Source of the DNA: an uncultured delta proteobacterium
Lineage (GTDB): Bacteria > Desulfobacterota > Desulfomonilia > UBA1062
Direction: 5' to 3'
Assembly (NCBI GenBank): GCA_963785235.1
Contig: CAWAUM010000001.1
Coordinates: 192,001 to 256,000 of the forward strand
Length of the DNA: 64,000 nucleotides
This document shows positions 30,267 to 55,737 of this stretch, in pieces; position 1 is the stretch's first letter, and the number at the start of each line of letters is the position of its first letter. The translations under genes and the position numbers were made by a program. The notes under the pieces were generated by a model. That model had not been told where the DNA came from, searched no databases, and saw only the letters and a program-made list of their open reading frames with translations.

Positions 30267-30308
30267 AATTTAACAATTAGAACCCGTCCCCAATTTATCC
30301 CCTACAAT

Positions 30309-30680
30309 TTAATTCCGGAGATGCACCGGCAATACTGCATGGAGTTTCCGATCAAGTGTCCAGACCGTAGCACCTACTCTCAAGGCGGCACTCATTATGG
30401 CTGCATCTATCAGACCTACCCCTTTTGACAGCAGCTTGTTCGTATTTGAATACTTACCTGCCTCTATCCAGATGCCCTGTGCATCAATCTTGGATATATT
30501 GTTCCAATAGTCCAGGATTACATCGGATTCACGCTTGTTCTTGGCTCCCTGAAGAAGCTCGGCGAATATCCACTCCAGAGCGATTATTTTACGACTCTCC
30601 AATAGTGTTTTAACAGCAGGGTAAATCTCGTCGTTTGCTTTGAAAAACTCAATCCAGACAGAGGTGTCGAGGATAACCAT
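30309..30680 (-). CDS. PIN-domain toxin (VapC family)
   Basis: ILDTSVWI, AELLQG, LIDAAI and WTLD acidic PIN motifs. Confidence 0.88.
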   Translation of the reverse strand: MVILDTSVWIEFFKANDEIYPAVKTLLESRKIIALEWIFAELLQGAKNKRESDVILDYWNNISKIDAQGIWIEAGKYSNTNKLLSKGVGLIDAAIMSAALRVGATVWTLDRKLHAVLPVHLRN

Positions 30681-30892
30681 TATCTGCGATTTATGGAACG
30701 TACGTTCTCAGCCGAAAAACCCTTTAAAAATTCGAGCGGCTTGTCTTTCACGCTCCCGTTCAATTCCTTAATCTTCTTGAGAGCAAGCCATTCCTCAAGT
30801 GCAATGGTCAAGCTCTCTGTTAAGGTTTTACCTTTGGCATAATGTCTAAGTTCATGAACAAGGTCGTCAGGGATAAGTGCTGTAACCTTCAT
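30680..30892 (-). CDS. Antitoxin (VapB-like)
   Basis: About 70 aa starting MKVTALIPDDLV; stop overlaps the PIN gene start. Confidence 0.8.
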   Translation of the reverse strand: MKVTALIPDDLVHELRHYAKGKTLTESLTIALEEWLALKKIKELNGSVKDKPLEFLKGFSAENVRSINRR

Positions 30893-30962
30893 AAGATCAG
30901 ATATACGATCAGTAATCGTATTTGTCAACAGATAACTTGAAATTAGTAAAGTGTCCGCCTGA

Positions 30963-32316: not shown

Positions 32317-32318
32317 TT

Positions 32319-32625
32319 CTAAGTCTTTTTCCTCTTCTTATTGGGGATGGGGTAGAAGATATCTATGTAAGTATGCTTGAAGACCCCTAAGGCCTCCCGG
32401 TGAATCATCAGCATCTCCCTCCGGGTGTAGTGCGAGTTTGTGAAGCTCGTTAAATTTCTCCACAAGGGAGTTGTATTCCTCAATGTTTTGTATTTGGCCC
32501 ATAAGGGCATCCAGCTCTTTGAGCTGCTCAAGGACCGACTCGAGTTGATGTCCGGAGCTGCCCAGGGCCTTGGCCATCTCCTCCATGAGTTCCTGCTGTG
32601 TCTTGTCAATGCTGTCTTTCACCAC
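32319..32625 (-). CDS. Small helical hypothetical protein, one frameshift
   Basis: Joined frames give ...QELMEEMAKALG...EYN...REMLMIHREALG...YPIP; abuts lpdA. Confidence 0.55.
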
Positions 32626-32809
32626 ACAATGGGCTATAGCACACAAGGCCCATGGCGATAAAGGGCCTGACGCAACCACGGGCCACAAGGTGATAATTCG
32701 AACAGGAATCCGTATTCTCCGGAACGATTCTATGGTAGGATACCAACATCTTAGCGGATAAAGAATCTCCTCCTGATATCCGATAAGCAGGCCTATACGG
32801 AGGGTTATT

Positions 32810-34126
32810 GTGGATCTTGATATAATCTCGGAACAAGTCGACACCACGATACAGTCACTGGGGAAGGCTACCATCGAATCCCCGGTTAGGGGAAGCGCCA
32901 TCTTTGTGGAAGACAGCGAGCGGGTCATCATAGATACCTCGCTGGACTTCTTCAACAGGTGCAGTCAGGGTGGTTCCCCTCCAACATCCTTTGAACTCTC
33001 CGGGCCCCGTAGAAAGATCTTCTTCGACCCTTCCAAGACCAAGTGCGGTATTGTAACGTGTGGAGGGCTCTGTCCGGGGATCAATGACGTTATCAGGGGC
33101 ATTGTCCTTGAATTGTACTATGTCTACAGCGTGGAGAATATCTACGGCATCACCTATGGTCTCCAGGGATTTATCCCCAAGTACAGGCATCCCCTCATCG
33201 AACTCACCCCTTCCTATGTCGAGCACATCCATGGAATAGGCGGCACCGTGCTCGGGTCTTCCCGTGGATCTGAAGATATCTCGGAGATCGTGGATGCCAT
33301 CGAGCGGCTGAATATGAATATCGTGTTCTTCATCGGTGGAGACGGCACATTGAAGGCATCTTCTGCAGTGGCCAGGGAGGCCTTGGCCAGGGGGTTCCGG
33401 TGCTCAATCATCGCGGTGCCCAAGACAATCGATAACGATATCCTCTTTGTTTCCAAGACCTTTGGCTTCGATACTGCGGTAGAAGAGGCAAGGAGGGTCA
33501 TCCAGAGCGCCCATGCAGAGGCCAAGGGGGCGCCTGACGGCGTCGGGCTCGTCAAGGTGATGGGACGGGACTCCGGATTTATTGCAGCCAATGCCGCCCT
33601 TGCTTCGAGGGATGTCAATTTCGTTCTCGTCCCTGAGGAGGACTTTGACCTTGAGGGTGAGAAAGGCTTTCTGGCCACACTCGAGAAAAGGGTCAGGTCG
33701 CGGGGTCATGCCGTGGTTGTTGTGGCTGAGGGAGCCGGGCAGAAGTTCTTCAAGGATCTCCCCGAAGAAAAGGATGCCTCCGGCAATGTAAGGAAGCACG
33801 ATATAGGCCTTTTCCTCAAGGACCGGATCGAGCGTTATTTCCAGGCACACGGTATGCCCACCAACATCAAGTACCTCGACCCGAGTTATTTGATCAGGAG
33901 TGTAGTGGCCAATGCCTCCGATTCGATCTTTTGCGGGTTCCTTGCCCAGATGGCGGTTCATGCAGGTATGAGCGGTAAAACCGATATGTTGATTGGTCTG
34001 TGGAATAATGTATATGTACATATACCCAATGCAATATGTATGAAGGGGAGGAAGAAGATCGATACGAGCGGGCCTTTGTGGATGAGCGTCAGGGAATCAA
34101 CCGGGCAGCCCGAAATGAAGAATTGA
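32810..34126 (+). CDS. pfkA: ATP-dependent 6-phosphofructokinase
   Basis: TCGGLCPG, GGDGT (Gly, ATP type), PKTIDND and MGRDSG motifs. Confidence 0.9.
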   Translation: MDLDIISEQVDTTIQSLGKATIESPVRGSAIFVEDSERVIIDTSLDFFNRCSQGGSPPTSFELSGPRRKIFFDPSKTKCGIVTCGGLCPGINDVIRGIVLELYYVYSVENIYGITYGLQGFIPKYRHPLIELTPSYVEHIHGIGGTVLGSSRGSEDISEIVDAIERLNMNIVFFIGGDGTLKASSAVAREALARGFRCSIIAVPKTIDNDILFVSKTFGFDTAVEEARRVIQSAHAEAKGAPDGVGLVKVMGRDSGFIAANAALASRDVNFVLVPEEDFDLEGEKGFLATLEKRVRSRGHAVVVVAEGAGQKFFKDLPEEKDASGNVRKHDIGLFLKDRIERYFQAHGMPTNIKYLDPSYLIRSVVANASDSIFCGFLAQMAVHAGMSGKTDMLIGLWNNVYVHIPNAICMKGRKKIDTSGPLWMSVRESTGQPEMKN

Positions 34127-34174
34127 GGCGTGACTGCTAAAAGGGCCAAAGTACGTTATCGAAAAGGAGTGACT

Positions 34175-34939
34175 ATGGATGACAAGAATTTATTAGAAGA
34201 TGATATTATTGATCTTACCGACCTTCTGGAGGAAGGCAGCCCGCCAAAGAAGCCCCAGCAATCCGACACACGAAAGAGGGTTGTGAATGAGCCTGATTCC
34301 TTTGACCTCGGCAAGGAGATATCTATGGATTATGATGTCTCCATTGAAGAGATCGAAAATGACACCACTGTGCTTCCCAATGATACCCCTTTGGATTTTG
34401 ACAAGAAGCCGGGCAAGCAATCCAAACTTGAAGAAGATATGAGTGACCTCCTGAAAGAGCCCCTGGGCAGCATCGAGTCTGAGATAGATCTTGCAATGAA
34501 GGACAAGTTCGAGGAAGTGAGCCTTACGGCAAAAGAAGAGGAAGTGCTCCTCAGTGAGACCCCGGCAGAAGAGATTCCCTCAATAAATAGTGAAGAGACT
34601 GATGCCCTCAATGAAGAATTCCCGGCCCCACCCGAAGAGCCTGTGAGGCTGCAGGAGGTTTTAATCCCTGCTGCGTCCACGCTGTCACCAATTCAGGAAC
34701 AACCCGGTGTCCAGGTGGAAATACCCAAGGTGAGCATCCCTGTTGATATGCCCACCGAGGCCATTTTGGATGCCGTTATCACTGAATTCAGGAAAGAAAT
34801 GCCTGCCCTCCTGGAAGGCATCGTAAGGCCGGTTGTGAAGGAACTGATCCAGGAGATTATCTCCTCAACCCGTGAAGTGATCCCCGGGATTGTGGAAAAG
34901 GTGATACGCGAAGAGATAGACAAGCTCAAGAAGCTCTGA
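34175..34939 (+). CDS. Acidic low-complexity protein with RomR/PopZ-like C-terminal helices
   Basis: AGGAG RBS, DDIIDLTD motif, Glu/Pro-rich linker and C-terminus IPGIVEKVIREEIDKL. Directly upstream of valS. Confidence 0.6.
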   Translation: MDDKNLLEDDIIDLTDLLEEGSPPKKPQQSDTRKRVVNEPDSFDLGKEISMDYDVSIEEIENDTTVLPNDTPLDFDKKPGKQSKLEEDMSDLLKEPLGSIESEIDLAMKDKFEEVSLTAKEEEVLLSETPAEEIPSINSEETDALNEEFPAPPEEPVRLQEVLIPAASTLSPIQEQPGVQVEIPKVSIPVDMPTEAILDAVITEFRKEMPALLEGIVRPVVKELIQEIISSTREVIPGIVEKVIREEIDKLKKL

Positions 34940-35020
34940 TCAGATAACCGCTTCGAGCCTTTTGCCTTTCCGCCTTGTTCATGCTATGAGGTGTGCCATA
35001 ACCCTCATCAGGAGTGCAAG

Positions 35021-37657
35021 ATGCTCGACAAAGATTACGACCCCAAGGATATTGAACAGAGATGGTACGACACCTGGCTTGAGAAGAAGTATTTCCATGC
35101 CAGTGAAGATGATGAGAAAAAACCCTGCTATACAATCGTAATCCCTCCCCCCAATGTCACCGGCGTGCTCCACATGGGGCATGCACTGAACAACACCCTT
35201 CAGGATATCATGATCCGTTACAAAAGGATGGATGGATATAATACCCTCTGGATGCCAGGCACCGACCATGCGGGCATAGCCACGCAGAACGTAGTGGAAA
35301 AGTATCTTGCAGAGAAGGGAACCTCCCGGCACGACCTGGGAAGGGATGAATTCATAGCAGAGGTCTGGAGGTGGCGGGAAAAGCACGGAGGACTGATCAT
35401 CAGCCAGCTGAAAAGGCTCGGCGCCTCCTGTGACTGGGACCGCATCAGGTTCACCATGGACGAGGGGCTCTCCAATGCGGTGAAGAAGGTCTTTGTAACA
35501 TTGTACGAAGAAGGCCTGATCTACCGGGGCGATTACATCGTAAACTGGTGCCCCAGGTGCCACAGCGCCCTGTCCGACCTGGAGGTGGAGCACGAGGAAG
35601 AAGACGGCCATCTCTGGCACATAAGGTATCCCTTGGCCGATGGATCGGGTGAGGTCGTGGTGGCTACCACCAGGCCCGAGACCATGCTGGGCGATACTGC
35701 CGTGGCGGTCAACCCTGAAGATGAGCGCTACGCAGCCATGATCGGCAAAGACCTTATCCTGCCTGTCATGAACCGCCGCATCCCCATTATTGCCGATTCC
35801 CTGGTGGACAAGGAGTTCGGCACCGGCGCAGTCAAGGTAACCCCTGCCCATGATCTCAACGACTATGAGATGAGCCTGCGGCATGGCCTGGAAGTTATCG
35901 TCATCATAGATGAGTCGGGATTCATGAATGCCAATGCCGGGCAGTATAACGGGCTTGACCGGTTCGAGTGCAGGAAACAACTCGAGAAGGACCTGGAGGA
36001 TCTTGGCTTCCTCGTGGACAAGACCGCCTACCGGGTGCCGGTCGGCGGGTGCTACCGGTGCAAGACCACCATCGAGCCGTATCTCTCCAAACAGTGGTTC
36101 GTCAAGACCAGGCCATTGGCGGATGAGGCCATCAAGGCCGTTCAAGACGGCCGGACGCGGATCATCCCCAAACAGTGGGAGAAGGTCTACTACGAGTGGA
36201 TGAACAACATCCGTGACTGGTGTATCTCGCGGCAGATCTGGTGGGGGCACCGGATCCCGGCATGGTACTGCGATGCATGCGAAGAGGTCATAGTAAGCGA
36301 GACAGAACCCAGGCAGTGCCCCACGTGTAAATCCGATGCGCTCAGGCAGGAGACCGATGTGCTCGATACCTGGTTCTCGTCCGGGTTGTGGCCCTTTTCC
36401 ACCATGGGCTGGCCGGAGCCCACAGCCGCATTGAAGAAGTTTTATCCCACCGATGTCCTCATCACCGGTTTTGACATCATCTTCTTCTGGGTGGCCAGGA
36501 TGATGATGCTGGGCCTGAAGTTCATGGGTGATGTGCCCTTTAAGGATGTCTACCTCCATGCCCTGGTGCGTGACGAGCAGGGCCAGAAGATGAGCAAGTC
36601 CAAGGGCAACATGGTGGACCCCATCATAGAGATGGACAAGTATGGGGCCGATGCCTTCCGTTTTGCCCTTACCGCCTTTGCCGCCATGGGCAGGGATGTG
36701 CGAGTCAGCGACAAGCGCATCCAGGGATACCGCTTTTTCATCAACAAGATCTGGAACGCCGGCAAGTTCGTTCTGGCGAATATCAAAGGGTTCGAACCCG
36801 AAGAGGTCACCCTTGATCCGGCAAAACTCGGGCTTGCGGAAAAATGGATACTGACCGAGCTGAACAAAACCATCCGGGATGCACGGCTCGCCCTTGATGA
36901 ATACCGCTACAACGACGCAGCGGACATCCTCTATCAGTTCACCTGGCATACCTACTGCGACTGGTACATCGAGCTGTCCAAGTCCATGCTGAACGCCGAA
37001 GGGTCTCAGTACACCAGGTGGGTGCTGCACTATGTGCTGAAGTCCATCCTCGAACTCCTGCACCCCATCATCCCCTTTGTCACCGAAGAGATCTGGCAGT
37101 GTCTGCCGGGCAGGGTGGGTGAGTCCATAGTAATCGCCTCCTATCCCAAGGCCAGGCCGGAGCTGGACTTTGTGGACGATGCCGAGCTCATGAGCTATAT
37201 CATCGAGGTTATCTCGGGTGTGCGCAGCATCAGGGGAGAGACGGGCATATCTCCTGCCGTGGTGCTCGATGTGGCCATCAGGGTGCCTGACGCAAAGCTG
37301 CAATCCATGCTGGGCGCCAACAGCATCCATATCAAGGACCTTGCAAGGGTTTCTCAGGTGAGGTTTATAGCCAATGAATCCGAGCGCCCGAAGAAGTGCG
37401 CCCTTTCCGTAAGGAAGGGACTCGAGGTCTATGTGCCCCTTGAAGGTATTATCGACATCGACAAAGAGACTGACCGGTTGAACAAGCAGATGGGCAAGGT
37501 GAACAAGGAGCTCGCAGAGAAGCTCAAGAAGCTGTCGAACCCCAACTTTGTGGAAAAGGCGAAGAAGGAAGTGGTGGAAGAGCAGCTCAAGATAAAGCAA
37601 GACCTTGAGTTCGAACTCATAAGCCTCAAGAAGGCCCATGCGCTGCTTCAAGGGTGA
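35021..37657 (+). CDS. valS: Valine--tRNA ligase
   Basis: PPPNVTGVLHMGH, DWCISRQIWWGH, KMSKS and C-terminal coiled coil. Confidence 0.98.
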   Translation: MLDKDYDPKDIEQRWYDTWLEKKYFHASEDDEKKPCYTIVIPPPNVTGVLHMGHALNNTLQDIMIRYKRMDGYNTLWMPGTDHAGIATQNVVEKYLAEKGTSRHDLGRDEFIAEVWRWREKHGGLIISQLKRLGASCDWDRIRFTMDEGLSNAVKKVFVTLYEEGLIYRGDYIVNWCPRCHSALSDLEVEHEEEDGHLWHIRYPLADGSGEVVVATTRPETMLGDTAVAVNPEDERYAAMIGKDLILPVMNRRIPIIADSLVDKEFGTGAVKVTPAHDLNDYEMSLRHGLEVIVIIDESGFMNANAGQYNGLDRFECRKQLEKDLEDLGFLVDKTAYRVPVGGCYRCKTTIEPYLSKQWFVKTRPLADEAIKAVQDGRTRIIPKQWEKVYYEWMNNIRDWCISRQIWWGHRIPAWYCDACEEVIVSETEPRQCPTCKSDALRQETDVLDTWFSSGLWPFSTMGWPEPTAALKKFYPTDVLITGFDIIFFWVARMMMLGLKFMGDVPFKDVYLHALVRDEQGQKMSKSKGNMVDPIIEMDKYGADAFRFALTAFAAMGRDVRVSDKRIQGYRFFINKIWNAGKFVLANIKGFEPEEVTLDPAKLGLAEKWILTELNKTIRDARLALDEYRYNDAADILYQFTWHTYCDWYIELSKSMLNAEGSQYTRWVLHYVLKSILELLHPIIPFVTEEIWQCLPGRVGESIVIASYPKARPELDFVDDAELMSYIIEVISGVRSIRGETGISPAVVLDVAIRVPDAKLQSMLGANSIHIKDLARVSQVRFIANESERPKKCALSVRKGLEVYVPLEGIIDIDKETDRLNKQMGKVNKELAEKLKKLSNPNFVEKAKKEVVEEQLKIKQDLEFELISLKKAHALLQG

Positions 37658-38377
37658 TGGAACCACTGAAATCAAAAAAGATTATCACGGAGTTCATAGA
37701 GCTTAACCAGGTGGACTCCACCAATCAATATGCCCTGGACAAAAGCAGGCCGGGGCTTCTTGTCACTGCCCGCGCCCAGAATGCAGGCCGGGGAAGGCGG
37801 GGAAGGCCGTGGTTCTCGCCTGCCGGTGAGAATGTGTACATGACGCTCACCGTCGCGCCGCCTGAAGAACGCTACCCCATTATTGCAGGTGTTGCCGTAC
37901 GGGCCGCCATTGCCGGCCTTGTTCCGGATGAGGCAGTGGCCGTCAAGTGGCCCAATGACATTGTCATATCAGGCAGGAAGGTGTGCGGGATCCTCTGTGA
38001 GACCAGGGGGCCCATCACCGCCATCGGCATCGGCGTCAATGTGAACCAGCAGGCATGGCCAAAAGAGCTTGAGCACAGGGCTTGTTCATTGAAGCAGTAT
38101 TCACATGATGGATTCAGTGTCAAATAAGGTGATTGAGTTGGTATCGGAGCACCTCTGCGCCTGGATTGATGTGTTCCGCAGCCAGGGCTTCGCTCCGGTC
38201 AGGGAGGAGTTCCTCCGCCATGGCCTGTTGCAAGGTTATGAGGTCTTTCATGAAAAGGGCCAAAGATGCACCATTGTCGACCTCACCATGGATGGACATC
38301 TCATTATCAGGGAAGGCGAGACGGAAATGGAACTTATTCATGAGCCTGTGTCTCTGGGATGGGATAAGGACTTGTAA
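37654..38377 (+). CDS. birA: Biotin--[acetyl-CoA carboxylase] ligase, frameshift near 38120
   Basis: DSTN, QNAGRGRRGRPW, KWPND, KVCGIL and GIGVNV motifs. Confidence 0.9.
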
Positions 38378-38390
38378 GACACGAACACTT

Positions 38391-38600
38391 TTATCGCGTT
38401 TTTGAAAGCAACTCCCCTTCGATGTACCGGTGGATTATGCCGGAAATGAGTGTCTGATAGGGGATACCCATTTTCATCGCTTTCTTTTGGATGCCCTGAT
38501 AATCATGTTCATAGAGACGTATGGTAATTGGTTTATCTTTTACAAAAGTCTTTCGTGCCGTTGCCTTGATTGCCTCGATCTCCTTTTTTGCCCAGGATAG
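38391..38600 (-). pseudogene. Orphan ribbon-helix-helix antitoxin-like fragment
   Basis: KDKPITIRL...GIPYQTLISGIIHRY resembles CopG/BrnA-like antitoxins. No convincing start and no toxin upstream. Confidence 0.6.
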
Positions 38601-39322
38601 TTCCCTTGGTCGGGATGATCCTATACTGCGTGGGACTTTCACTTTTTAATCCGCCTTGCCGTTCTCCCGGCGCACCAGGGATCTATGATCCTGCTTGAGT
38701 GATAGTATTCTATAACTGTCCATACTAACTTGTAAAAGAAACAATGATGGGTATAATGGGAACATAAGGTAACTGAAATGAAAGTAGTCATCTTTTGCTT
38801 TAATACGCAAGACGAGTTGAGCATGTAAATCTTTGTATTATATTCTTATTATAGTTTTGTAATTGGAGTACCGGGGTTATCAGAGCATCCGAGTTCAAAG
38901 AGGATCACTGAAGAGACCACCCAAAAGCCTGATCTGGAAGCTTTCGCACAGATCAGCAAAGAGAAATGGCGGTCTCCCTATGATATCCCTGGAGAGTATC
39001 ATTCAGAAAGATGATCCCGAAAAAACCAGCCAATGAGCTGGCTGCGGCCCTATCATACGGATAGGGCTTACGGTCCCTCTCATGACTAACACATGGAGCA
39101 GAGATGGGGATAATCAAAGGGGACATTTTTAACGAGTCTTGACAATGCCTCATAATCAGTATTGATATTTCACAAGACAGATTTACTATTACTGATGATG
39201 TACTTTAGTCAAATGATCGTTTCAGTGCAGCTCTTTTTGGGGAAAGACCAAAGCTTCATAATAACCCTTTGCGTACTTCATGAAGTGAAAGAGTAAGTGT
39301 ATTCAATAAGGGGGATAAATCT

Positions 39323-39725
39323 CATGAAGAATGAAACCCGGAAGAAAATCTATTTTTGGGGTTCCTTATGGAATTTTGGTTTCTCATTCAATGGTCTGGT
39401 GATGCCAAGTCTCACCATGTGGCTCATCTCCGGATCAAAGAATATAATTACCGGGGTTCTGCCCCGGACCTTCTTTGCATTCTTCTGGTCAGCAGTGGGC
39501 GTCTTTGGGTGGGGTTACTACCTCGTATCACGTGACCCGGAAAAGAATCAGGGTGTCATCTGGATGGGATGCTTTGCAAAAGTTGGCATCTTTCTCACTT
39601 TTGCCCGTCTCTATCTACGCAAGTACATAACGCTCTTCGGCTTTCTGTGTGCCCTGGGAGACTTGATATGGACGATCCTCTTCCTTGCTGCACTGCGTGG
39701 AGAGAAACAGGAAGAGAAAGCCTGA
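39323..39725 (+). CDS. Small multi-TM membrane protein
   Basis: Purine-rich RBS before MKNETRKK; four hydrophobic segments. Confidence 0.65.
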
Positions 39726-39791
39726 AAAATGTGTCCTGAGTAAGCATAAAGAGCTGGATGACTGAGCTTTAACGTCATTTCTGATTTCCTC

Positions 39792-40091
39792 ATGGAATCT
39801 ATACTTAAACCTATGGCTCTTAGCCAGTATCGTTTGGCCAAGGAAATTGGCGTACCCGCTCAGCGTATCAGTGAGATTGTTGCTGGCAAGCGTTCGATTA
39901 CAGCTGATACCGATTTGCGGTTGTGCCGGTTCTTTGGTCTATCCAACGGCTATTGGTTACGCGCTCAGGCTGCCCACGATACGGAGGTTGCAGAGCGCTC
40001 TCTAGGCCCATCGCTAAAGAAGATCAAACCTTGGTCTGCATATGCGGACCAACAAGGGGCTCCAGCTAATGTTCGTACCTCGCACGGCTGA
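39792..40091 (+). pseudogene. higA: HigA-family antitoxin lacking its N-terminus
   Basis: LKPMALSQYRLAKEIGVPAQRISEIVAGKRSITADTDLRL is HigA HTH. The usual HPGE start and higB are absent. Confidence 0.8.
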
Positions 40092-40105
40092 GCTTTTTGT
40101 TACTG
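40047..40105 (+). other. attC-like integron cassette recombination site (59 bp)
   Basis: R'' GACCAAC, 5-nt spacer, L'' GCTCCAGC, central spacer, L' GCTGAGC, 5-nt spacer, R' GTTACTG. L'' equals the reverse complement of L' plus one extra base. Confidence 0.7.
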
Positions 40106-40361
40106 CACCGAAAGTGAGGCGTAACGATCAGAATACACTTATCCCTGTCAGCCAGGAAGTGTCTGAACCTGACCACGCTCGTTCAACTTCAAAAGTATGC
40201 TTGAGTAGGATGATCCCATTATAATACCTGGCACTATTTCACCGCGCCAATAAGCCTCTAAAGAAGATAAAGGCAATATTTTCTCTCGCGCATGAAATAT
40301 TTTCCGACGAGAGCCTGGTAACGACCTGTCCATAAATAGGAAGCGCCCGCACCTTCTCTTG

Positions 40362-40377
40362 TGGCACAATGGTTGCT
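40362..40377 (+). promoter_or_regulatory. sigma54 (-24/-12) promoter for the Zorya operon
   Basis: TGGCAC-AATGG-TTGCT matches TGGCAC-N5-TTGCW exactly. Confidence 0.75.
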
Positions 40378-40389
40378 CATATAAAGGGT

Positions 40390-42396
40390 ATGATGATAGA
40401 CTTTGTCCGCCATTTTCTGATCATAGCAATAATATCCCTGACACTTATTGCCATAGCATTGAGTTTTTTCACTCAATTCGTCCTGCCGGCCATGCGCCTC
40501 AGGAAGGACCTTCAGGCGACCATCGAGCGGGTCAGGCGTTTAAAGGCTGCCTCCAAGGGCAAGATAACCGACCTTGAGGAGATCTCGCAGGAGATGCTGA
40601 CAAGTGATAGGTTCAGCCATCCCTGGCAGGAGTATCGCGAAACACTCCATGAACAACAGTGCGCTGATCCTTCCGGCAAAGGCAAGTCGGTGCGGTGGCG
40701 TTCCACAACCCTGGCTGAAACCTTCTTCTCCGAGCAGGCCCTGGTAGATACCCCATTAAAGACCTCTTTCTACAAGCATCTGCCCGGGATACTCACCGGG
40801 CTCGGCATCATCGGCACGTTCTCGGGCCTCATCGTGGGCCTGATCAGGTTCGAGGTGTCCGGCGATGCGGACAAGGTGCGTGCGAGCCTGAACGGCCTTA
40901 TCCAGAGCGTGGGGTATTCCTTCGTTGTGTCCGCTACGGCCATCACGCTCGCCATGATCTTCATCTGGGTGGAAAAATCACTCGTTACTGCATGCTACCG
41001 GCATGTGGAGAAGTTGTGCCAGCTCATAGACAGCCTCTTCGATACCGGTGCCGGGGAGGAGTATCTGGCGCGCCTGGTGGTTGCCGCCGAGACTTCGGCA
41101 GAGCATTCGCTCACCATAAAGGATTCCCTGGTAACCGACCTCAGGCAGGTCTTCACCGAGCTCGCCACCCAGCAGATGAAGGCCTCGGCCCTGCTCAGCA
41201 AGAATCTCTCCGTAACCATCGCACAAGGTATAACCAGGAGCATAGAGGAACCCATGGGGCGGATCTCCATGGCCGTCCAGAAGGCAAGCGCGAACCAGGG
41301 CGAGGCGGTGAACAAGGTCCTCTCCGATGTCCTGGCAGGCTTTTCTTCGCAGATGCAGGGCATGTTCGGCAATCAGTTCCATGAAATGGGCGACATCCTG
41401 AAAGGAACCGCAGAGGCAATCCAGGGGGCTGCCCTGCAGGTGAGCAGGTGCGTTGAAACCATGCAGGCACGGGAAAAGGAACGGAACAGGCCATGGCCGA
41501 ACGCCTGAACAGCGCGGTCAACTCGCTGGATGAACGTCAGAAGATCATGGACAGGTCCATGAGTGTCTTTGTGGAAAAGACCTCTGAAGTGAACACCTCC
41601 CAGACAGATGCAACAAGGAATATGCAGTCCATCCTTACCGACATCGGGGAACGGATGGCGGGCATTGTTACCCAGATCGAGACACAATCACGCCACACGG
41701 CACAGGAGTATGAAGCGCGCCAGGGCAGACTGGCAGAGCAGAGTGTCTCCATAATGGGCGAGATTAACGAACCAGCTCAGGACCTTAGCGGGTGAGATGA
41801 GGCAGGCGGGTGAGATTACCCGTGACAGCGCTACAAACCTGGCATACATCACCAAGGAATCCACAGGGCTGTTCAATGCAGGTGCACATGCCCTGCAGGT
41901 TTCTTTCAAAGACTTTTCAAAGGCGTCGGGCATGGTGAGCAGTACCATGCAGGCCATAGAGAAGGCATCCGCTGAGATCCAGGGCGCCTCATCCAACCTC
42001 GCCCAGGCAACGAACGGGGTAAAGGATATGATGGACGAGCACGCCCGCACGAGCGATATCTTTGCAACCATTGTCTCAGAGCTCAGGTCCACCATTGAGA
42101 ATGCCCGGCACGAGGCGTCCATGACCACCCAGATCGTTGAGAGGATACAGAAGGCAACCGAGCAGCTCGGCATAGCCCAGAACAAGGCGGAGGAATATCT
42201 CCATGGGTTGACTGATGTGCTGGCCCAGGCGCATGCCGAGTTTGCCGGGAATATCGAACTGACGCTCCGGAAGAGCAATACCCAGTTCCATGAAGAGCTC
42301 TCCAGGGCCGTGTCGCTGGTATCAGGGGCAATACAGGATTTCGGGGATGTCCTCGACTCGGCATCGGACAAGGGTGATAAGCAATGCTGGGTCTAA
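40390..42396 (+). CDS. zorA: Zorya ZorA (MotA-like TM domain with long helical tail), two frameshifts
   Basis: HLPGILTGLGIIGTFSGL TM motif and three TMs. Long coiled-coil tail across ORFs 40369-41508, 41493-41795 and 41797-42396. Confidence 0.85.
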
Positions 42397-43088
42397 GGCT
42401 TCCCTGCCGCCATAAAACACAGGACGATGCGGAAAAGCCCTTCTGGATATCGTTTTCCGATATGATGACGGCGCTCATGGTGCTTTTCCTGGTGGTCATG
42501 ACCGTGACGCTCCTTGCGGTCACCCATACCGTTTCACAGGCCGAGCGCATGAAGACGGCAAAGGGATGCGGAGATCAGCAAGCTCATGGCGAAGATACGG
42601 GAGGCTTCACGGGATTTCCCCGGCATCACCCTTAAGGGCAATACCATCGACTTCGGCGACCAGGCCCGCTTCGAAACCGACAGCAACCGCCTCACCCGTG
42701 AGCAGGCGCAGCATTTGAGGGCCTTTGTGCCCAGTGTATTGAAGATAGCCCGCGACCCTTTGGGTAAAAAATGGCTTAAGCGGGTGGTGGTGGAAGGGTA
42801 TGCCGACCAGCGCGGGACGTACCTGCATAACCTTGACCTGAGCATGCAGCGTTCCGAAAGGGTGCTGTGCGCCCTGCTGGCCATGCCGGAACCTCAAGAG
42901 AAATCCCTGAACCACCGGATGACCGTCTGCTTATCCAGCAGCTTTTCCTGGTGGGCGGGGCATCGTTCAATTCTTTGAAAAAAACCCTGGAGGAGAGCAG
43001 GCGGATAGAGCTGAAACTGGAGTTCCTGGAGATGGGAGAAACCAGGCCCATAACGCCCCCCATACAACTGGCTGCAGACCAGTACTGA
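42384..43088 (+). CDS. zorB: Zorya ZorB (MotB-like TM plus OmpA-like domain), two frameshifts
   Basis: EKPFWISFSDMMT with the conserved Asp, then VVEGYAD, NLDLSMQRS and SRRIEL. Confidence 0.88.
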
Positions 43089-43102
43089 GAGCTGGATTAA
43101 CC

Positions 43103-44516
43103 ATGAACGCGCTCGACCTGTTACGCTTCAAGCTGCATCAGTCGTTTTCTTCTGTGTTTCATGATGCCACGTGGGGACAGCCCGAACTCATGACCAAGGT
43201 CCTTCAAGAAGTGTGCGCTGCATTTGATACCTCTGCAGATACCACCTCCAGAAGGTCCATCGGCTCAGACCCTGCTGTCTTTTCGAGCATCCGCCAAGCT
43301 GCCCACATTTTTAGACCTGAAATATGCGTGCATAGGCATTTCCCAGCAGGCTGGAGACGACGGCTGGCGGTTGCTGGAAGACAGGGACCTCTTTGCAGTC
43401 GTACTGGATGGTGTCAGCTCCCAGGCGCATAATCCCAGGCGCTTCAGGAAATGCTACCAGGGGCTTCTGAGCGGGTATTTCGACTACAATATATTCGATG
43501 CTGCCGTACCGGAGCAGGGCAGGAAGAACTGGCTGAGCCTGCGCTCTTTTCTCCGGGATCATCTGGGCGTAATTCAGCGGGCCGTGCCCGTGCTCAGCTG
43601 GGTCAAGGTTATCAGCAGCCACATGAACCTGCTTGACGATAACCCGTGCGAACGCTATGGCGCTGCACTGGCACAGGGCGACTACGCGGAACTGAAGTCG
43701 GCCTTCAAGGGCCTCCTCATCCCTAAGAATTCGTGGATCTGGGAGGTCATAGTCCTGGCGCGCATCAGGGCCATATGCAGTTTCACGGATGATGAATTCA
43801 AGAAACAGCTTGCAGTGTCTCTGGCCATGGCTAGCCATAACTCCGGCATTATACTCTCTGAGATACTGAAGAAGAAGTGTCTCGCGCAGCTCATAGGCCG
43901 TTATGCACGGTGTGCAGCAAGGCCGGAAAACGCCTTGCTCTGTGACTGCGCCATATCAATACTGGGAAATCCATGGGTCAACCGGGCGGCATGGGATGCA
44001 CATGTACACGATGATACCGCGAGAACCATGATCGAATCCTGGCTGAAACGTAGATTGATCACTGATTATTTCCACCTGCTCGGCCGGGACAGGTCGGTGG
44101 ATATGCAACGCCTTAAGTACTGGCTGAATTTCATCCCCAAGATAGAAGACATGTGGTTCGCGCTGGGCCCCTATGCATTGAACCATCCCGGGGCGGTTTT
44201 CAAGGAATTCCGGGAGATAGCCAAAGACCGCATCCTGGCCCTTGAAAGTCCGGGCTGTGATGAAGACAACGCACTCATCATGAAGATTGACGACTATGTC
44301 TTTGTGGAGTTCGGATCAACAGAGAATTCCTGCCTGGTCTTCAAGAGCAACGACCTGCCTTTTGATCTGGACAAGAAATGGATCTATATCGGCTCGAAAG
44401 CAGGTTCCGGCCTGCCGCACAGGCTTAATATGAAGCATTCGCTGCGGAAAAACAGCACCCTGAAATTTCCAGTTGCTGACCCATCATCAAGGGACGCCAT
44501 TAAAAAATCAGCTTAA
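43103..44516 (+). CDS. zorC: EH-signature domain protein (ZorC-like), frameshift near 43265
   Basis: Follows zorB; LGNPW, RLKYWL, NALIMKI and FVEFG...NSC motifs of EH-signature proteins. Confidence 0.75.
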
Positions 44517-44554
44517 AAACCGGATTTTGCGGGTAAGAAGAGTAAAGACTTTTT

Positions 44555-44642
44555 TCCGTTCAAATCCATCACCAAAGCAGCCTTCGTGAAATGCTAATTT
44601 TAGCGGTCCTTCCAGGCTGCTTTGGTGATGGATTTGAACGGA
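44555..44642. repeat. Long palindrome copy A (29-bp perfect arms)
   Basis: Arms 44555-44583 and 44614-44642 are exact reverse complements. Homologous to copy D. Confidence 0.9.
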
Positions 44643-44755
44643 CCTATTTAAAGAACAGTTTCATGCTCACTATGAGTGCTCTGCTAATGGCCACCTCCAG
44701 ATGCATGAAGCCCTTGTGGTTACATCCAAACGCAAAAACCGGGGTTAAGGCCCCG

Positions 44756-45457
44756 CTATGTTTTTGTCCGGCTGAGGCTTCTCTGGATGCGGGACTGTAT
44801 CTTCTGCTGGAACAGTCTCCTTATAATATATCCACGGAACAGGTTGGCAGCCCGGGTGAGATTCGTGGTTATCTCAGCGTTATCCTTTGCGGACATGCCC
44901 CGGATGATCCTTTTGCGAAACGCCACCTCATGGTCGGTGATCTCATGGCCGAGACGGACATAGAACTCGAAATCATTTGGGTCGATGCCGAATTGATAGA
45001 CCTGCCGGATAGCTTCCCTGGCTACGGTAACGTCTTCAGGGTTGTATAGGCAGTTCTCCTTTTCCCTCAGGTAAGGCATAATAAGGCCGATCCGCTCCAC
45101 CTCATCGAGCTGCTCGGGCTTCAAACCGGTCAGGCTTAAGAACTCCGCCCGGTCTACCAAGTTCATCTCCCCATCGGCTATGGGTGCGAACACTGCATCC
45201 TCAACCGCCGAAGACTCTTCAAAGGTAAAACCGTCGTCCATGCGGCGCAGGATATTTTTGATCATTGCCAAAGGGTAGTACTTTTTTTCCTGCAGATGCT
45301 GGATTGCGTAGAGTTTCTTGATGCAGATCTCGTTGTAGTAGGCCATCTTTTTATTGACCTTTTCCGGGGCAGGAAGGAGGCCTTCTTTCACGTAGTAACG
45401 GATCGTCGAGACAGGGACCCCGCTTTTTCTGGAGAGTTCTCCTATTTTAAGGCCCAT
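44756..45457 (-). CDS. MerR-family transcriptional regulator
   Basis: LKIGELSRKSGVPVSTIRYYVKEGLLP HTH and a second degenerate HTH. Confidence 0.88.
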   Translation of the reverse strand: MGLKIGELSRKSGVPVSTIRYYVKEGLLPAPEKVNKKMAYYNEICIKKLYAIQHLQEKKYYPLAMIKNILRRMDDGFTFEESSAVEDAVFAPIADGEMNLVDRAEFLSLTGLKPEQLDEVERIGLIMPYLREKENCLYNPEDVTVAREAIRQVYQFGIDPNDFEFYVRLGHEITDHEVAFRKRIIRGMSAKDNAEITTNLTRAANLFRGYIIRRLFQQKIQSRIQRSLSRTKT

Positions 45458-45493
45458 GTCTTTATCGTCCTTTTCAGCTTCTGCGCTCAACTA

Positions 45494-46531
45494 TCAAGCA
45501 AAAACGCCCGACATCCTTTTCTCGATGGCCTCCGCTTCATTCACGATCCGATCCAGAAGCTCCTTGACCGATGGCTCGTCATTGATCAAGCCGCCGCACT
45601 GACCCACGGGCAGGATCCCCTTTCCAAGGTCACCTTCTTCAGTGGCCAGCTGGAAGGCCTTGGAGGCGTTTGCCAGATACGCGAACTGCATGGAGGTCTT
45701 CCAGCCTGACAGCAGGACACCGATGAAGAGCTTGATGAAGGGCAGACGCAGCGACTTGGCAATATCCTGAGCATTGAAGAATGCTGCGGGCAGGTTCAAG
45801 CCTTTCTTTTTGGCGCGCTGGGCCGTCTCGGTATCCAAAACCCGGCACCAGAGCCCGTCGATGCGTTTTGAGTACAGGGTTTGGGCGGTATCCATCTTGA
45901 TGGAGAGATCTTTGTAGTTTCTGTGCAGAGGGCTTTCCTTGGTGGTCATAAGCCTGGTCCCCATGGCGACACCTTCGGCGCCGAGCGCGATCGCTGCGGC
46001 CAGGCCCCGCCCGTCTGCTATGCCGCCTGCCGCAACCACAGGGATGGTCAGGGTATCAACAAGGCTCGGTATGAGGCAGAATGTGGTGATGAATTCACCG
46101 TGGGCCGCCGCCTCATTACCCGTTGCTATTACGGCATCGCATCCATAATCCTGGGCCCGCTTGGCGTGACGTGCGGTTACTACGGTGGCCACAACCTTGC
46201 CGCCGTATTTGTGGGCTTCCTCTACAATCCAATCCCCCTTGCCCAGGGCGAAGTTGATCACCGGGACCTGCTCTTCTAAAAGAACCTTTGCAGACTCCTT
46301 GGCGCCGGGAAACAGGAGCGATGCGTTGGCACCGAAGGGCTTGTCCGTGAGCTTGCGGATCTGTTTAATAGCCGAGCGGGTCTGCTCCTTCTCCAGGGGG
46401 CCTGTGGCGAGTATCCCCAGACCGCCTGCATTTGAAACGGCAGCCACCATCTCGGGTACGCTGATCCAGCTCATTCCGGAAAGGAAGATAGGGTAGTCAA
46501 TGCCCATCATTTCGGTGATCCTTGTCTTCAT
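45494..46531 (-). CDS. Nitronate monooxygenase / FabK-like flavoprotein
   Basis: AVSNAGGLG, EAAAH, AAGGIADGRG and MGTR motifs. Confidence 0.88.
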   Translation of the reverse strand: MKTRITEMMGIDYPIFLSGMSWISVPEMVAAVSNAGGLGILATGPLEKEQTRSAIKQIRKLTDKPFGANASLLFPGAKESAKVLLEEQVPVINFALGKGDWIVEEAHKYGGKVVATVVTARHAKRAQDYGCDAVIATGNEAAAHGEFITTFCLIPSLVDTLTIPVVAAGGIADGRGLAAAIALGAEGVAMGTRLMTTKESPLHRNYKDLSIKMDTAQTLYSKRIDGLWCRVLDTETAQRAKKKGLNLPAAFFNAQDIAKSLRLPFIKLFIGVLLSGWKTSMQFAYLANASKAFQLATEEGDLGKGILPVGQCGGLINDEPSVKELLDRIVNEAEAIEKRMSGVFA

Positions 46532-46688
46532 AATGCCCTCCAGGTAGGTTTGTTAGGAATGAACTATAAAGTATTACTTCATTCTTTACAATAAAAAAAT
46601 ATCAAGAGTGAATTGTTCTCACTGTGAAAAAGAGGTTGTCCTTGAGATACCCCTGCACAGCAGCAAAAAAGGCAAAGAAGAAAATTGG

Positions 46689-46739
46689 CCCGTTCAAAAC
46701 ATGGATCTTGGTGAAACCAAGATCCATGTTTTGAACGGG
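46689..46739 (+). repeat. Long palindrome copy B (24-bp arms, GAA loop)
   Basis: CCCGTTCAAAACATGGATCTTGGT-GAA-ACCAAGATCCATGTTTTGAACGGG. Confidence 0.9.
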
Positions 46740-46926
46740 TAAGGTTTTTTCTCCCCAGGTATATAGTTTTCTGGAAGTTATTAGGAGAAGTTTTCTTCAG
46801 GAATTCCTTCTTTGCGAAAAGGGCACCCTAATGATAGAGGTTGGTAGACACTTTATCCAAGGAGGCATATGCATGTCAGGAGCCATCCTTGTAATAAGGA
46901 GAATATCCCCCTTGAATGGGCATTGT

Positions 46927-47532
46927 ATGAATCGCACGCCATCCAGGCCAAGGCCTTTGAATGTAAATCCAGGCTTTATGCCGACAGGTATATCTCCTGC
47001 GGGGACTGAACACTTGAGTGCCCCGGTACCGCGCCTGCCCAGGCTGATTGAATCAGATCCCCGAGCACCGCAGGTTCTGTGCATGCTCAGCGCAAACACA
47101 AGGCTGCTGTGGAAGGAGGGTGAGATCGAGGTGACGGTCGCCAAGCTCAGTCCAGAGCTGGAAACGGCCTTGCGGTGTGCCCATAATGCCGGACAGGTGG
47201 TCCAAGGGTTGGAGAGCGCGGAGCGCAGACTTCTTCTTGAAGAGCGGGGGCTGCGTCTGGCTGATAAGAAAAGCAGCGTGCAGCGCGGTGAGCGTGTTTC
47301 GCGCCTGCTGATGATGTCCGACGACGGAGCCGAGCGCTTTTATCGCAAGGTGGAGTCGCTTCTGCGCCGGCACGGGCCGCGTATGCTCGCAGTACGTCTT
47401 GAGGTGGATGCTGCCACCCTGGGAGAACTGATCTTCGGCAAGGGGCGTCTTGCCCGGCTGCTGATGCTCGAACACAAGGAGGCAGTCAGCGCAGTGCTCC
47501 TGGCTATGGCCGGCCGTGCCGAGGGAGCATGA
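46927..47532 (+). CDS. Hypothetical protein with possible L7Ae-like RNA-binding fold (start uncertain)
   Basis: AHNAGQVVQGLESA, RLLMMSDDGAERF and DAATLGELIFGK follow the L7Ae/YlxQ motif order. Confidence 0.5.
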   Translation: MNRTPSRPRPLNVNPGFMPTGISPAGTEHLSAPVPRLPRLIESDPRAPQVLCMLSANTRLLWKEGEIEVTVAKLSPELETALRCAHNAGQVVQGLESAERRLLLEERGLRLADKKSSVQRGERVSRLLMMSDDGAERFYRKVESLLRRHGPRMLAVRLEVDAATLGELIFGKGRLARLLMLEHKEAVSAVLLAMAGRAEGA

Positions 47533-47641
47533 CAAACAATTCGATCGTATAGTTGACAGAATGCATGCTGTTCCATTAGCTGTATCCAGATACAAAAATG
47601 GACGCCGACTGAGAAAATACTTACTTTAGAGGACAACATTC

Positions 47642-48532
47642 ATGAAGCTCTTGCGAAACTGGTTTCTAGCAACGAGGCCCTGGTCATTTTCCATGACAGT
47701 GATATCGGTGAGTGTCGGAAGCGTCCTTGCGGCCATAGAGGGTCAATTTTCCTGGTTTCTCTACCTTCTTACCGTAACAGGCGCCGTGTTCATGCATGCG
47801 GGCACGAACCTTTTGAATGATTATTACGATGTAAGAAACGGCCTTGATACTTTGTCGGCAGCAACGGCGCAGTACCGGCCTCACCCAATTGTTCACGGTC
47901 TGGTGCCTGCCCGGCAGGTGCGCCTGGGGGCCTATGGCCTTTTTTGCGCTGCCTGCGCCATAGGGCTCTATCTCACTTTTGTCAGTGGCCCTATGGTATT
48001 GTGCATCGGCTTGATAGGTATCCTGGCTGGAATAGGTTATACCGCTCCACCCATGAGATATAAATATTTCGCATTGGGCGAGGTATCGGTATTTCTCATG
48101 TGGGGGCCTCTCATGGTCGAAGGCGCCTACTATGTTCAAAGGCACATCTTAAGCTTCAATGCGCTGCTCATATCCATCCCCTTCGGAATACTGGTTGCAT
48201 TGGTGATCTTTGCAAACAACATCCGGGACATAGAGCATGACAGCAGAGAGCATATCAGGACCGTTGCCATTTGGCTCGGGCCCAGAGCAGGTATACATGT
48301 CTATCTTGCCATCATGATCCTTGCATACCTGAGCACGCTCATCATCACCTTATTGGGCGTACTCACCCCATGGGGGCTCCTGGTATTCCTCTCCCTGCCG
48401 CTGGCAATAAAACTTCTCCGGCAGATGGAGACAAGCATCCCGGCAGATGCCGATGCCCAGACAGCCAAACTCGACACGGCCTTTGGAGTTCTTCTTGTAA
48501 CAGGTCTGGTCATCCAGAGGCTCATGGGATGA
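47642..48532 (+). CDS. menA: 1,4-dihydroxy-2-naphthoate polyprenyltransferase (UbiA family)
   Basis: ATRPWS, NLLNDYYD, YTAPP and ANNIRDIEHD motifs. Confidence 0.85.
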   Translation: MKLLRNWFLATRPWSFSMTVISVSVGSVLAAIEGQFSWFLYLLTVTGAVFMHAGTNLLNDYYDVRNGLDTLSAATAQYRPHPIVHGLVPARQVRLGAYGLFCAACAIGLYLTFVSGPMVLCIGLIGILAGIGYTAPPMRYKYFALGEVSVFLMWGPLMVEGAYYVQRHILSFNALLISIPFGILVALVIFANNIRDIEHDSREHIRTVAIWLGPRAGIHVYLAIMILAYLSTLIITLLGVLTPWGLLVFLSLPLAIKLLRQMETSIPADADAQTAKLDTAFGVLLVTGLVIQRLMG

Positions 48533-49155
48533 ATCATGCCGGATTCCGACCAAGGCTGGTATGGTTTACAGTCATACTGGCCTTTGGGCTGTGGTTTGTA
48601 ACCTTTTACCTGGATTGGCTGAATTTCTGGATCAAGATATCTTTTAGTGCAGCCACGCTTGGGGCATTGTCCGTATGGGCGCACACCTTGAGGGATAACA
48701 GGCTGTGCTTTGACAGAACCGCTGTTTTCCAAGGGCTTGTTGCTGCTGTTGCCCTCTATGTAGTATTCTGGGCAGGGCAAACGGTATCATCATACATCTT
48801 CCCTTTTGCCTCACACCAGGTCAGCGCCATTTACGGCAAAGGGGCAGGATTTTCGCGTTTCAGTATTTTCTTCCTCCTGCTTCTCGTCACAGGACCATGT
48901 GAAGAGATTTTCTGGCGGGGCTTTCTGCAGCGCAACCTCATGGGCCGTTACGGCGAATTCCCAGGCTGGCTTCTGGCCACAGCGATCTATACCGGCGTGC
49001 ATATCTGGTCTTTCAACTTCATGCTTATCGGGGCGGCAGCTGTTGCAGGTGCTTTCTGGGGGCTTCTCTACATGAAGCTGAAGCGTCTGGATACCCTCAT
49101 CATCTGTCATTCCCTCTGGAGTGCATGTATCTTTGCCGTAGTTCCATTGATGTGA
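48529..49155 (+). CDS. CPBP-family intramembrane metalloprotease (CAAX-like)
   Basis: EEIFWRG motif, H in TGVH and HSLW; multi-TM. Confidence 0.85.
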   Translation: MNHAGFRPRLVWFTVILAFGLWFVTFYLDWLNFWIKISFSAATLGALSVWAHTLRDNRLCFDRTAVFQGLVAAVALYVVFWAGQTVSSYIFPFASHQVSAIYGKGAGFSRFSIFFLLLLVTGPCEEIFWRGFLQRNLMGRYGEFPGWLLATAIYTGVHIWSFNFMLIGAAAVAGAFWGLLYMKLKRLDTLIICHSLWSACIFAVVPLM

Positions 49156-49257
49156 TACACGATTAATAATTCTGACCTCTTTTTTTCAGGTGTCGCATGA
49201 GTGAATATCCAGATCCTTGGGAAAGGACCGATAGATCATTATTGAGGAGACGCTACA

Positions 49258-50199
49258 TTGCTTTATAAAGAGATACCCCATCATATAGCCTTTATTAATC
49301 AGAAAAGTACTATTGATATTTATGTTAAGATCAGGGGCGACTACCGCCTGTTTGCCGCCAGAGGGGCACTCTTGTCCGATGAACAATACCGGCAGTTCAA
49401 CAAGGAGTTGATGAAGCTCTATTTCATGGTGCAGGACTCCGTTGACCCTGAAGAGAGTCTGGACGCCCACCTTATGGATATTTTGACCAGTCCTGAGGTG
49501 AGCCCGCAGGCGAAAGCGGATATCGCATATTCAACATCCATGAAATCCATCCAGGATGTATTCCAGGGGGTCAATTCGAGGACCTTGTCCGCGCTGAAAA
49601 AGGTTTCAAAAAAAATCGTAAAAATGATCCTGACAGACAGTAAGGTCATTGATAATTTCATGACAATCACCAGTGACGACCATTACACCTTCATGCATTC
49701 GGTAAAGGTGGGGATCTATGGCACAGCCATGGCGATCAATCTTTTTCAGGATAAGGTCAGGGACCACAATATCGATGAATTGAGCATGTCATTTTTCCTC
49801 CATGATATCGGAATGACAAAGGTCCCGAGCACTATCCTGAATAAGAAAGAACCTTTAACCGACAGCGAATGGGAGACCATACGGGAACACCCCCTCTGGG
49901 GACAGGACCGGCTCAGGAAGGCACGTTACGAAAGTAATGAGTCAACCGAGATCATCCTGTATCACCATGAGAGGTGCGATGGGAACGGATATCCATTTAA
50001 AAAAACAGGCAGTCAGATCCCTTTCTATGCAAAGATATGCGCCATTGCCGATACCTTCGAGTCCCTGACTACAGGGAGGCCTTTCAGATCACCCAAGAGT
50101 GCGTTTGAGACACTCAGGATCATGCAGGTGGAGATGGCCCGGGAGTTCGATCCCGAGCTGTTCAGGGCCTTCGTTATGCTCCTCGGCCCCGGCAGATAG
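49258..50199 (+). CDS. HD-GYP domain protein (c-di-GMP phosphodiesterase)
   Basis: HSVKV, LHDIG, HHERCDGNGYP and IADTF motifs. Confidence 0.9.
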   Translation: MLYKEIPHHIAFINQKSTIDIYVKIRGDYRLFAARGALLSDEQYRQFNKELMKLYFMVQDSVDPEESLDAHLMDILTSPEVSPQAKADIAYSTSMKSIQDVFQGVNSRTLSALKKVSKKIVKMILTDSKVIDNFMTITSDDHYTFMHSVKVGIYGTAMAINLFQDKVRDHNIDELSMSFFLHDIGMTKVPSTILNKKEPLTDSEWETIREHPLWGQDRLRKARYESNESTEIILYHHERCDGNGYPFKKTGSQIPFYAKICAIADTFESLTTGRPFRSPKSAFETLRIMQVEMAREFDPELFRAFVMLLGPGR

Positions 50200-55722: not shown

Positions 55723-55737
55723 AGAGGAGAAATCAGT

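Follow-up and report, generated by a model that had tools for sequence, protein, structure and literature searches.

The stretch of DNA analysed here (the window, 64,000 nucleotides (nt) long; G000:C1:192001-256000 in our numbering) belongs to the genome of an uncultured delta proteobacterium, which measures 3.91 Mb in 13 contigs and is 93% complete. At positions 40369-44516 of its forward strand lies a series of open reading frames (ORFs) in shifting frames that match the PADLOC models of the type I Zorya proteins ZorA, ZorB and ZorC. The original prediction, made from the letters of the window, had placed a zorA-zorB-zorC group without zorD at 40390-44516, and the absence of ZorD was found to extend from the locus to the entire 3.9-Mb genome. 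The operon turned out to belong to a clade of Zorya loci that have a short ZorC, no adjacent zorD, and a sigma54-type promoter with an enhancer-like element of their own. The following features were delineated.

40270..40305, + strand: enhancer-like 36-nt element (AAGGCAATATTTTC ... GAAATATTTTCC), 92 nt upstream of the -24 element
40362..40377, + strand: sigma54-type -24/-12 promoter TGGCACAATGGTTGCT, ending 13 nt before the zorA ATG
40390..42396, + strand: zorA, MotA-like motor subunit with a long tail, in three frames (PDLC00598; GLGIIGTF motif)
42384..43088, + strand: zorB, MotB-like, with the plug/transmembrane (TM) Asp in FWISFSDMM and an OmpA-type peptidoglycan-binding domain (PDLC00611, Pfam)
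43103..44516, + strand: zorC, short form of about 470 amino acids (aa) after allowing for a +1 at 43264 (PDLC00613, PF15611, alignment with 8r68)
44555..44641, no strand assigned: perfect hairpin with a 29-bp stem, past the 3' border of the module (-72 kcal/mol, z -8.5)

Model searches assign the locus to type I Zorya. The ZorA1 model PDLC00598 is matched by three pieces that span profile positions 9-660 of 663 (best piece, E 3e-133), and the ZorB1 model PDLC00611 by three pieces spanning positions 1-228 of 240. The match to the ZorC1 model PDLC00613 (E 2.5e-122) is confined to positions 52-420 of 570. Pfam recognizes MotB_plug, OmpA and EH_Signature (PF15611) in the ORFs of the locus, and the best PADLOC models for ZorA and ZorB are those of type I and not of stators. 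The motor residues that had been quoted for the two proteins are both present in the translations, in the ZorA motif LTGLGIIGTF and the ZorB motif FWISFSDMM. The N-terminal segment of ZorB is like that of the relatives, its plug/TM segment (PFWISFSDMMTALMVLFLV) is identical across the short-clade loci compared, and this segment and the ZorA GLGIIGTF motif are conserved in the clade. Measured against a complete type I ZorABCD system, ZorA and ZorB are therefore of the expected kind, ZorC lacks the characteristic His and the C-terminal domain, and no ZorD adjoins it.

The search for an unlinked zorD, which the original prediction had proposed, gave nothing. The ZorD1 model PDLC00630 has 0 matches in the window's own genome. 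The SNF2 family (PF00176) has 0 matches there as well, versus 14 positive genomes out of 14 controls. Nothing is found in this genome by tblastn at E <= 0.01, whether the query is a same-genus ZorD or the final 130 residues of a canonical ZorC. As to the effectors of the other subtypes, type II (ZorABE, with the HNH protein ZorE) and type III (ZorABFG), no PADLOC effector model for ZorE, ZorF or ZorG is matched beside zorAB, the search having covered the neighbours in the window and in the relatives and not the whole genome. Ten other module-bearing genomes were considered for SNF2 proteins; in five of them (G003, G007, G109, G005 and G119) the family has 0 matches.

Public relatives of the operon come from metagenome-assembled genomes labelled Desulfomonilia or delta proteobacterium. 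A class-wide search finds ZorC in 9 of the 14 other genomes of the genus and in 1 of the 12 genomes of a second genus; among the nine of the same genus, G008 has the canonical long form and about eight carry the short form. The phylum-wide search for ZorC yields 4 of 401 genomes only and nothing further on the short clade. The three-gene module with the short ZorC is intact in relatives at 47-90% ZorC identity. Seven loci (L003, L054-L058 and L060) hold an intact operon, with ZorA of 574-686 aa, ZorB of 233-241 aa and ZorC of 458-514 aa, and the genes directly after zorC in relatives are unrelated and mostly convergent (ThiJ-like, DUF1003, BacA, hybrid kinase). The operon of G008 is canonical: its ZorC has 561 aa (profile positions 7-568 of 570) and its ZorD 1252 aa (PDLC00632, 1479 bits). 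Its ZorC identity is only 48%.

A metagenome scan contributed 41 loci, which were pooled with the earlier ones. Among short-ZorC loci (estimated ZorC length, 462-512 aa) with at least 1.3 kb downstream, zorD occurs in 0 of 19, versus all 24 of the long-ZorC loci with at least 0.5 kb downstream, in which it directly follows zorC. The long count takes in L088, whose ZorC is cut by the contig start and has an unreliable length estimate. Left out of the count are L091 (2 nt downstream), L095 and L097 (contig end cuts ZorC), L099-L101 (weak or no ZorC) and L096. The 20 short loci form 13 clusters at 97% nt identity. This survey of orthologous loci argues against a merely truncated system, which had been offered as one of two explanations: relatives carry the same module in intact form, their ZorC ending equally short, and in no such module is zorC followed by zorD. 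Nor do close relatives carry zorD adjacent, as a simple deletion in the window would have led one to expect; one same-genus operon, that of G008, is canonical, with a ZorC identity of only 48%.

ZorC homologues number 209 at E <= 1e-20. Among the best 120 of them, the nearest 25 or so have 438-503 aa and the rest mostly 540-617 aa. A FastTree phylogeny was built from 117 of these 120, namely those of at least 430 aa; the G008 protein was not identified among its rows. The short ZorCs (n = 24) form one clade with an SH-like support of 100 and a 562-aa protein as sister; the clade is nested among long ZorCs, and five other short rows are scattered singletons. In nine gene-pair comparisons over zorA, zorB and zorC, the ratio of non-synonymous to synonymous substitution rates (dN/dS) is 0.10-0.27, a range that points to purifying selection on all three genes. 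A separate form was seen in L096 (1744-5785): a distant ZorC (34% identity, estimated 487 aa) is accompanied by neither a zorD within 3.9 kb nor a sigma54 motif, and one 780-aa open frame is apparently shared by ZorB and ZorC. It may be a second, independent ZorD-less form.

What the short ZorCs have lost can be read against the E. coli protein. As described by Hu et al. 2024 (PMC11946911), the 560 aa of E. coli ZorC comprise N-terminal helices, a core at residues 58-478 that has the EH network (E400, H443, D332, R335, W339 and W458), and a C-terminal globular domain at 487-560. The same paper reports that the substitutions E400A or H443A, or removal of either terminal part, abolish defence, and that DNA binding depends on both the EH motif and the C-terminal domain. 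The alignment of the clade's ZorC with PDB 8r68 extends over residues 85-428 and shows the Glu to be conserved. When 25 short ZorCs were aligned with 41 long ones, the EH Glu was present in 25/25 and 41/41, respectively. The canonical His column holds a His in 0/25 short versus 40/41 long proteins; the Trp-Glu columns are gaps in all 25 short ones and filled in all 41 long ones, and the columns of the tail domain are empty across the short set. Past KWIYIG, 25-50 residues remain in the short ZorCs and make up a basic, variable tail. The L003 ZorC (88% identical), modelled with AlphaFold2, has a mean predicted local distance difference test score (pLDDT) of 83, with the core above 90 and residues 435-474 below 50, so that the basic tail is predicted to be disordered in this model; its sole significant PDB match is ZorC 8r68 (E 2.4e-11). 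The remark that ZorC keeps the Glu motif and has an atypical C-terminus is thus borne out, the end being short. The ZorC of the second genus (G119; L060 8012-9556, and L071) has a Pro/Ser/Ala-rich insertion of about 50 residues after residue 113, and it is without even the nearby His present in some short ZorCs.

The promoter is the second hallmark of the clade. The sigma54 motif at 40362-40377 reads TGGCAC-N5-TTGC. A motif of this type (TGGCAY-N5-[T/A]TGCT) stands 28-76 nt before the estimated zorA start in 16/16 short-clade loci whose upstream sequence is available, versus 0/17 canonical ZorABCD loci. About 92 nt upstream of the promoter lies the 36-nt element, whose two half-sites of the AATATTT type are separated by 21 nt; by pattern it is found in 15/16 short-clade loci, the 16th (L057) having a variant, and the strict pattern occurs once in the window's own genome. 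Both blocks are conserved in an alignment of the short-clade upstream regions. The host genome has rpoN and about 31 genes for enhancer-binding proteins (EBPs). EBPs neighbouring the module in G004 (GAF type) and G109 (receiver type) were considered as dedicated regulators and set aside: they are mutually different and stand among unrelated genes. In the sub-clade of the window, L003 and L061, the gap between the sigma54 motif and the ATG of zorA is only 13 nt, compared with about 36-60 nt in other sub-clades, which suggests that the zorA mRNA of this sub-clade would be nearly leaderless.

The enhancer leads to the flagellar genes. Flagellar middle-gene sigma54 promoters are served by EBPs of the FlrC/FleR/FlgR or FleQ/FlrA kind. 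As an independent test, a position matrix was derived from nine zor enhancers alone and scanned over the genome. Its best hit is the zor site (score 56.8). Second, at 28.0, comes a minus-strand site at C3:216727 that has TGGCACTATGGTTGCT 94 nt downstream of it; eight further hits exceed 14, and these score 17.1 at most and have no promoter. The promoter at C3:216727 heads fliK (Flg_hook), flgD and flgE, followed on the same strand by motA and two motB-like ORFs. A further scan covered the 119 sigma54-like sites of the genome with a matrix that took in the zor and fliK instances: an element 80-110 nt upstream was seen only at zorA (50.2) and fliK (45.6), the next best score being 6.4 and the median -17.5. 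The new point is that the sole other enhancer-promoter unit in the genome appears, from its position, to drive fliK-flgD-flgE and then motA/motB.

The same arrangement was looked for in the flgD-upstream regions of 20 relatives; one stretch of 45 nt was dropped. The remaining 19 comprise seven with the short module, one canonical, four of the same genus without ZorC and seven of other genera. In 18/19 the best-scoring matrix site within about 4 kb precedes the sole sigma54 match of that strand by 92-95 nt. Scores of the fliK-upstream element in relatives range from 4.8 to 31.6; in G006 the fliK promoter is present and the element absent. This recurrence in 18 of 19 relatives argues that the enhancer has long belonged to the fliK promoter in this family and that what the Zorya module has is a copy of the same arrangement. 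The zorABC genes thus apparently are co-regulated with flagellar hook and stator genes. The idea of a three-gene variant, possibly repurposed given its sigma54 promoter, is thereby strengthened: promoter and enhancer occur clade-wide and match the fliK-flgDE unit of the host.

The reading frames of the operon are interrupted in the window. In comparison with L003 (90% nt identity) and L002 (95.5%), which agree with each other against the window, five frame-breaking indels were located: 41468 (-1) and 41765 (+1) in zorA, 42562 (+1) and 42914-16 (+2) in zorB, and 43264 (+1) in zorC. The inserted bases at 42560, 42916/42920 and 43264 are absent from the contigs of X1, X2 and X5, three runs from three separate studies, and the one at 41764 is absent from the contigs of X2, the sole run with an indel listed there; run X4 covered just 11 of 30 bins. 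No sequencing run with the source reads was found, the best holder containing 0.36 of the sampled words, and the read test was therefore limited to the contigs of relatives. Housekeeping genes of the window are split over two frames in the same way: as judged by Pfam, a glycosyltransferase (1887-2880), DegT (7905-8665), lpd (30963-32337), a glycyl-radical enzyme (55723-58117) and CheA (62485-64000), and in addition birA (37609-38127). Compared with G002 and G011, window-specific and mostly +1 indels fall in lpd (~31915), at the end of birA (~38123), in the glycyl-radical enzyme (57474-78) and in other places; indels in the window are mostly +1 and outside homopolymers. Beyond the window, flgE is also split, as are about 3 of 31 EBP domains. 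Because the housekeeping genes are broken like this, the five frameshifts most probably are errors of the assembly, and the operon of the strain itself is probably intact. On the window's own branch, zorABC has 27 synonymous versus 9 non-synonymous single changes, and its in-frame stops are confined to those created by the shifts.

The module has sharp borders. Homology between the window and L003 is limited to 40266-44508, the flanks being unrelated, so the 4.2-kb unit travels with its own sigma54 promoter and 36-nt enhancer and is found in different chromosomal places; in the loci examined it never adjoins flagellar genes. In G003 (L054 ~12500-12545, reverse), the sequence upstream of the module resembles, by eye, the 3' end of a tRNA gene (GGTTCGAGTCCC...CCGCCA), which would fit insertion at a tRNA site. 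In the window, an HTH_3 (HigA-like) ORF lies upstream at 39792-40091, and the hairpin and a convergent MerR gene (44756-45490) lie downstream; other neighbours are small ORFs that have no assignment and a nitronate monooxygenase-like gene. No Zorya effector model of PADLOC matches these neighbours, in agreement with the original prediction. Its mention of attC debris upstream finds no backing in the Rfam scan of 37500-46000, which gave no family at E <= 0.1 (the presence of an attC model in Rfam was not confirmed). No tRNA genes were found in 30000-50000. The hairpin, earlier called palindrome A, has a full copy at G000:C1:720365-720449 and a half copy at G000:C12:130653, and it is possibly a terminator or a small repeat element; contigs of relatives differ around it, one omitting 44646-44717. 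Elsewhere in the window, between hisG and lpd (29429-30973), an IS200-like transposase (Y1_Tnp) stands beside a PIN-domain ORF with a small upstream ORF, the latter two likely being a toxin-antitoxin pair.

The operon may be compared with three known systems. Like type I Zorya of E. coli NCTC9026, as described in the accessible part of Hu et al. 2024 (PMC11946911), it has a long-tailed ZorA and a ZorB with the plug/TM Asp and a peptidoglycan-binding domain, and its ZorC has the N-terminal helices, the EH-core fold of PDB 8r68 and the conserved Glu. Unlike that system, the clade is without ZorD, the C-terminal globular domain of ZorC, the EH His and the network Trp, and it has a promoter with sigma54 and enhancer elements that the 17 canonical loci lack. 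The promoter resembles sigma54 flagellar middle-gene promoters in its -24/-12 structure and in an upstream activator site about 92-95 nt away; unlike them, the unit appears to precede an operon of Zorya type. The flagellar stator MotAB is the third relative, since ZorA and ZorB are homologues of MotA and MotB and the shared enhancer occurs at a promoter upstream of the host's own motA/motB; unlike MotAB, ZorA extends into a long tail in the cytoplasm and has ZorC as its partner. The accessible parts of PMC11946911, PMC11890865 and PMC8565338 describe three Zorya subtypes and name ZorABC only in a legend that lists test constructs. The portion available of PMC12643550 compares MotAB with ZorAB and reports no Zorya under flagellar control. 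In the literature searched, as far as its text was accessible and leaving aside supplementary tables that possibly list ZorD-less loci, no link between Zorya and sigma54 or flagellar regulation was seen.

We favour, with a confidence slightly better than even, the reading that the locus is a genuine ZorD-less zorABC operon of type I Zorya descent that serves against phages in the flagellated state and has a non-nucleolytic output. A flagellar-type EBP would turn on the module together with hook and stator genes. ZorA5B2 would remain a peptidoglycan-anchored, ion-driven sensor motor, given that both the plug/TM Asp segment and the ZorA motif have been kept, and the ZorA tail would still contact the N-terminal helices of ZorC. 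The output presumably cannot be DNA degradation of the ZorD type, and that of ZorC is probably not DNA binding. The best guess is an anti-phage module of the flagellated state, directed perhaps against phages using the flagellum for entry, and its output could be an ion leak or growth arrest via ZorAB, or an action of ZorC on a host partner.

Several points weigh against this reading. According to PMC11946911, the E. coli system depends on ZorD, on the His of ZorC and on the C-terminal domain of that protein, each being required; a defence role in their absence is therefore an assumption. The co-regulation is read from sequence only, with 31 EBPs as candidates for the activator, and the enhancer pattern was composed after the first loci had been seen. 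The scan of 119 sites was not independent, given the instances included in its matrix, and the tree is a FastTree one with a midpoint root only. The module lies outside defence islands, with housekeeping genes for flanks. G002, G004, G009 and G011 carry the module plus unlinked SNF2 proteins. The protein in G009 (locus L045, G009:C44) has DpdE as its best match (E 1e-183), which suggests a Dpd-type DNA-modification defence system in that genome, and the 622-aa protein of G002 matches DpdE and the ZorD helicase part with equal scores. Finally, indels are denser in zorABC (5 in 4.15 kb) than in the flanks (~10 in ~22 kb, with both comparators agreeing), and actual recent decay of the operon in the source strain is possible.

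Such decay would make the copy a dead remnant, that is, a member of the ZorD-less lineage with five real frameshifts and recently inactivated. We consider this quite unlikely. The density of the indels, their absence from all related contigs of the three runs and the failure to find a run holding the source reads would all fit it, but similar indels split lpd, birA, the glycyl-radical enzyme, DegT, CheA and flgE, and the changes on the window's own branch (27 versus 9) are not numerous enough, and are too conservative, for a period of neutral decay in which five indels could have accumulated. Very improbable indeed is an ordinary type I Zorya with ZorD encoded elsewhere or lost by a simple local deletion. 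The complete ZorABCD of the same-genus G008 and the 93% completeness of the window's genome leave some room for it; against it stand the lack of any SNF2 domain or ZorD match in that genome, the five module-bearing genomes free of SNF2 matches, the low identity of the G008 ZorC, and the fact that the short ZorC end and the absence of zorD are common to all 19 assessable clade loci.

A more serious rival, though still a rather unlikely one, is a repurposed non-defence role as a flagellar or envelope accessory, such as a stator-like sensor, a brake or an envelope-stress device. An enhancer-promoter common to zorABC and fliK-flgDE with motAB downstream, the loss of the nuclease and of the DNA-binding determinants of ZorC, flanks of housekeeping and not defence genes, and strong purifying selection all agree with such a role. 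However, the distribution is patchy (short form in about 8 of 14 genomes of the genus), the varied chromosomal sites and sharp borders are the behaviour of accessory or defence cargo and not of core flagellar parts, the module is never seen beside flagellar genes, and the clade is nested inside defence-type Zorya I. Because the module is patchy, mobile and nested within defence Zorya, we prefer a role in defence that is geared to the flagellated state. The broader idea that a Zorya lineage has been rewired into the flagellar programme, as a stator-derived sensor motor with a pared-down ZorC that is made solely while hooks and stators are being built and that acts either as a nuclease-free guard of the flagellated cell or of the flagellar route of entry, or as the flagellum's servant, is offered as a tentative possibility.

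Current models of Zorya end in a nuclease, be it ZorD, ZorE or the less understood ZorFG. A clade that keeps ZorA, ZorB and a trimmed ZorC and has no nuclease suggests that the ZorAB motor can signal to a different output, and the ZorD-less clade offers a minimal system for finding that other output. The enhancer shared with fliK-flgDE provides a testable hypothesis on the timing of production of the system and would tie an immune sensor derived from MotAB back to the flagellar programme. If the flagellar rewiring is true, this would be the first Zorya that has no nuclease partner and the first module of defence type under a flagellar enhancer.

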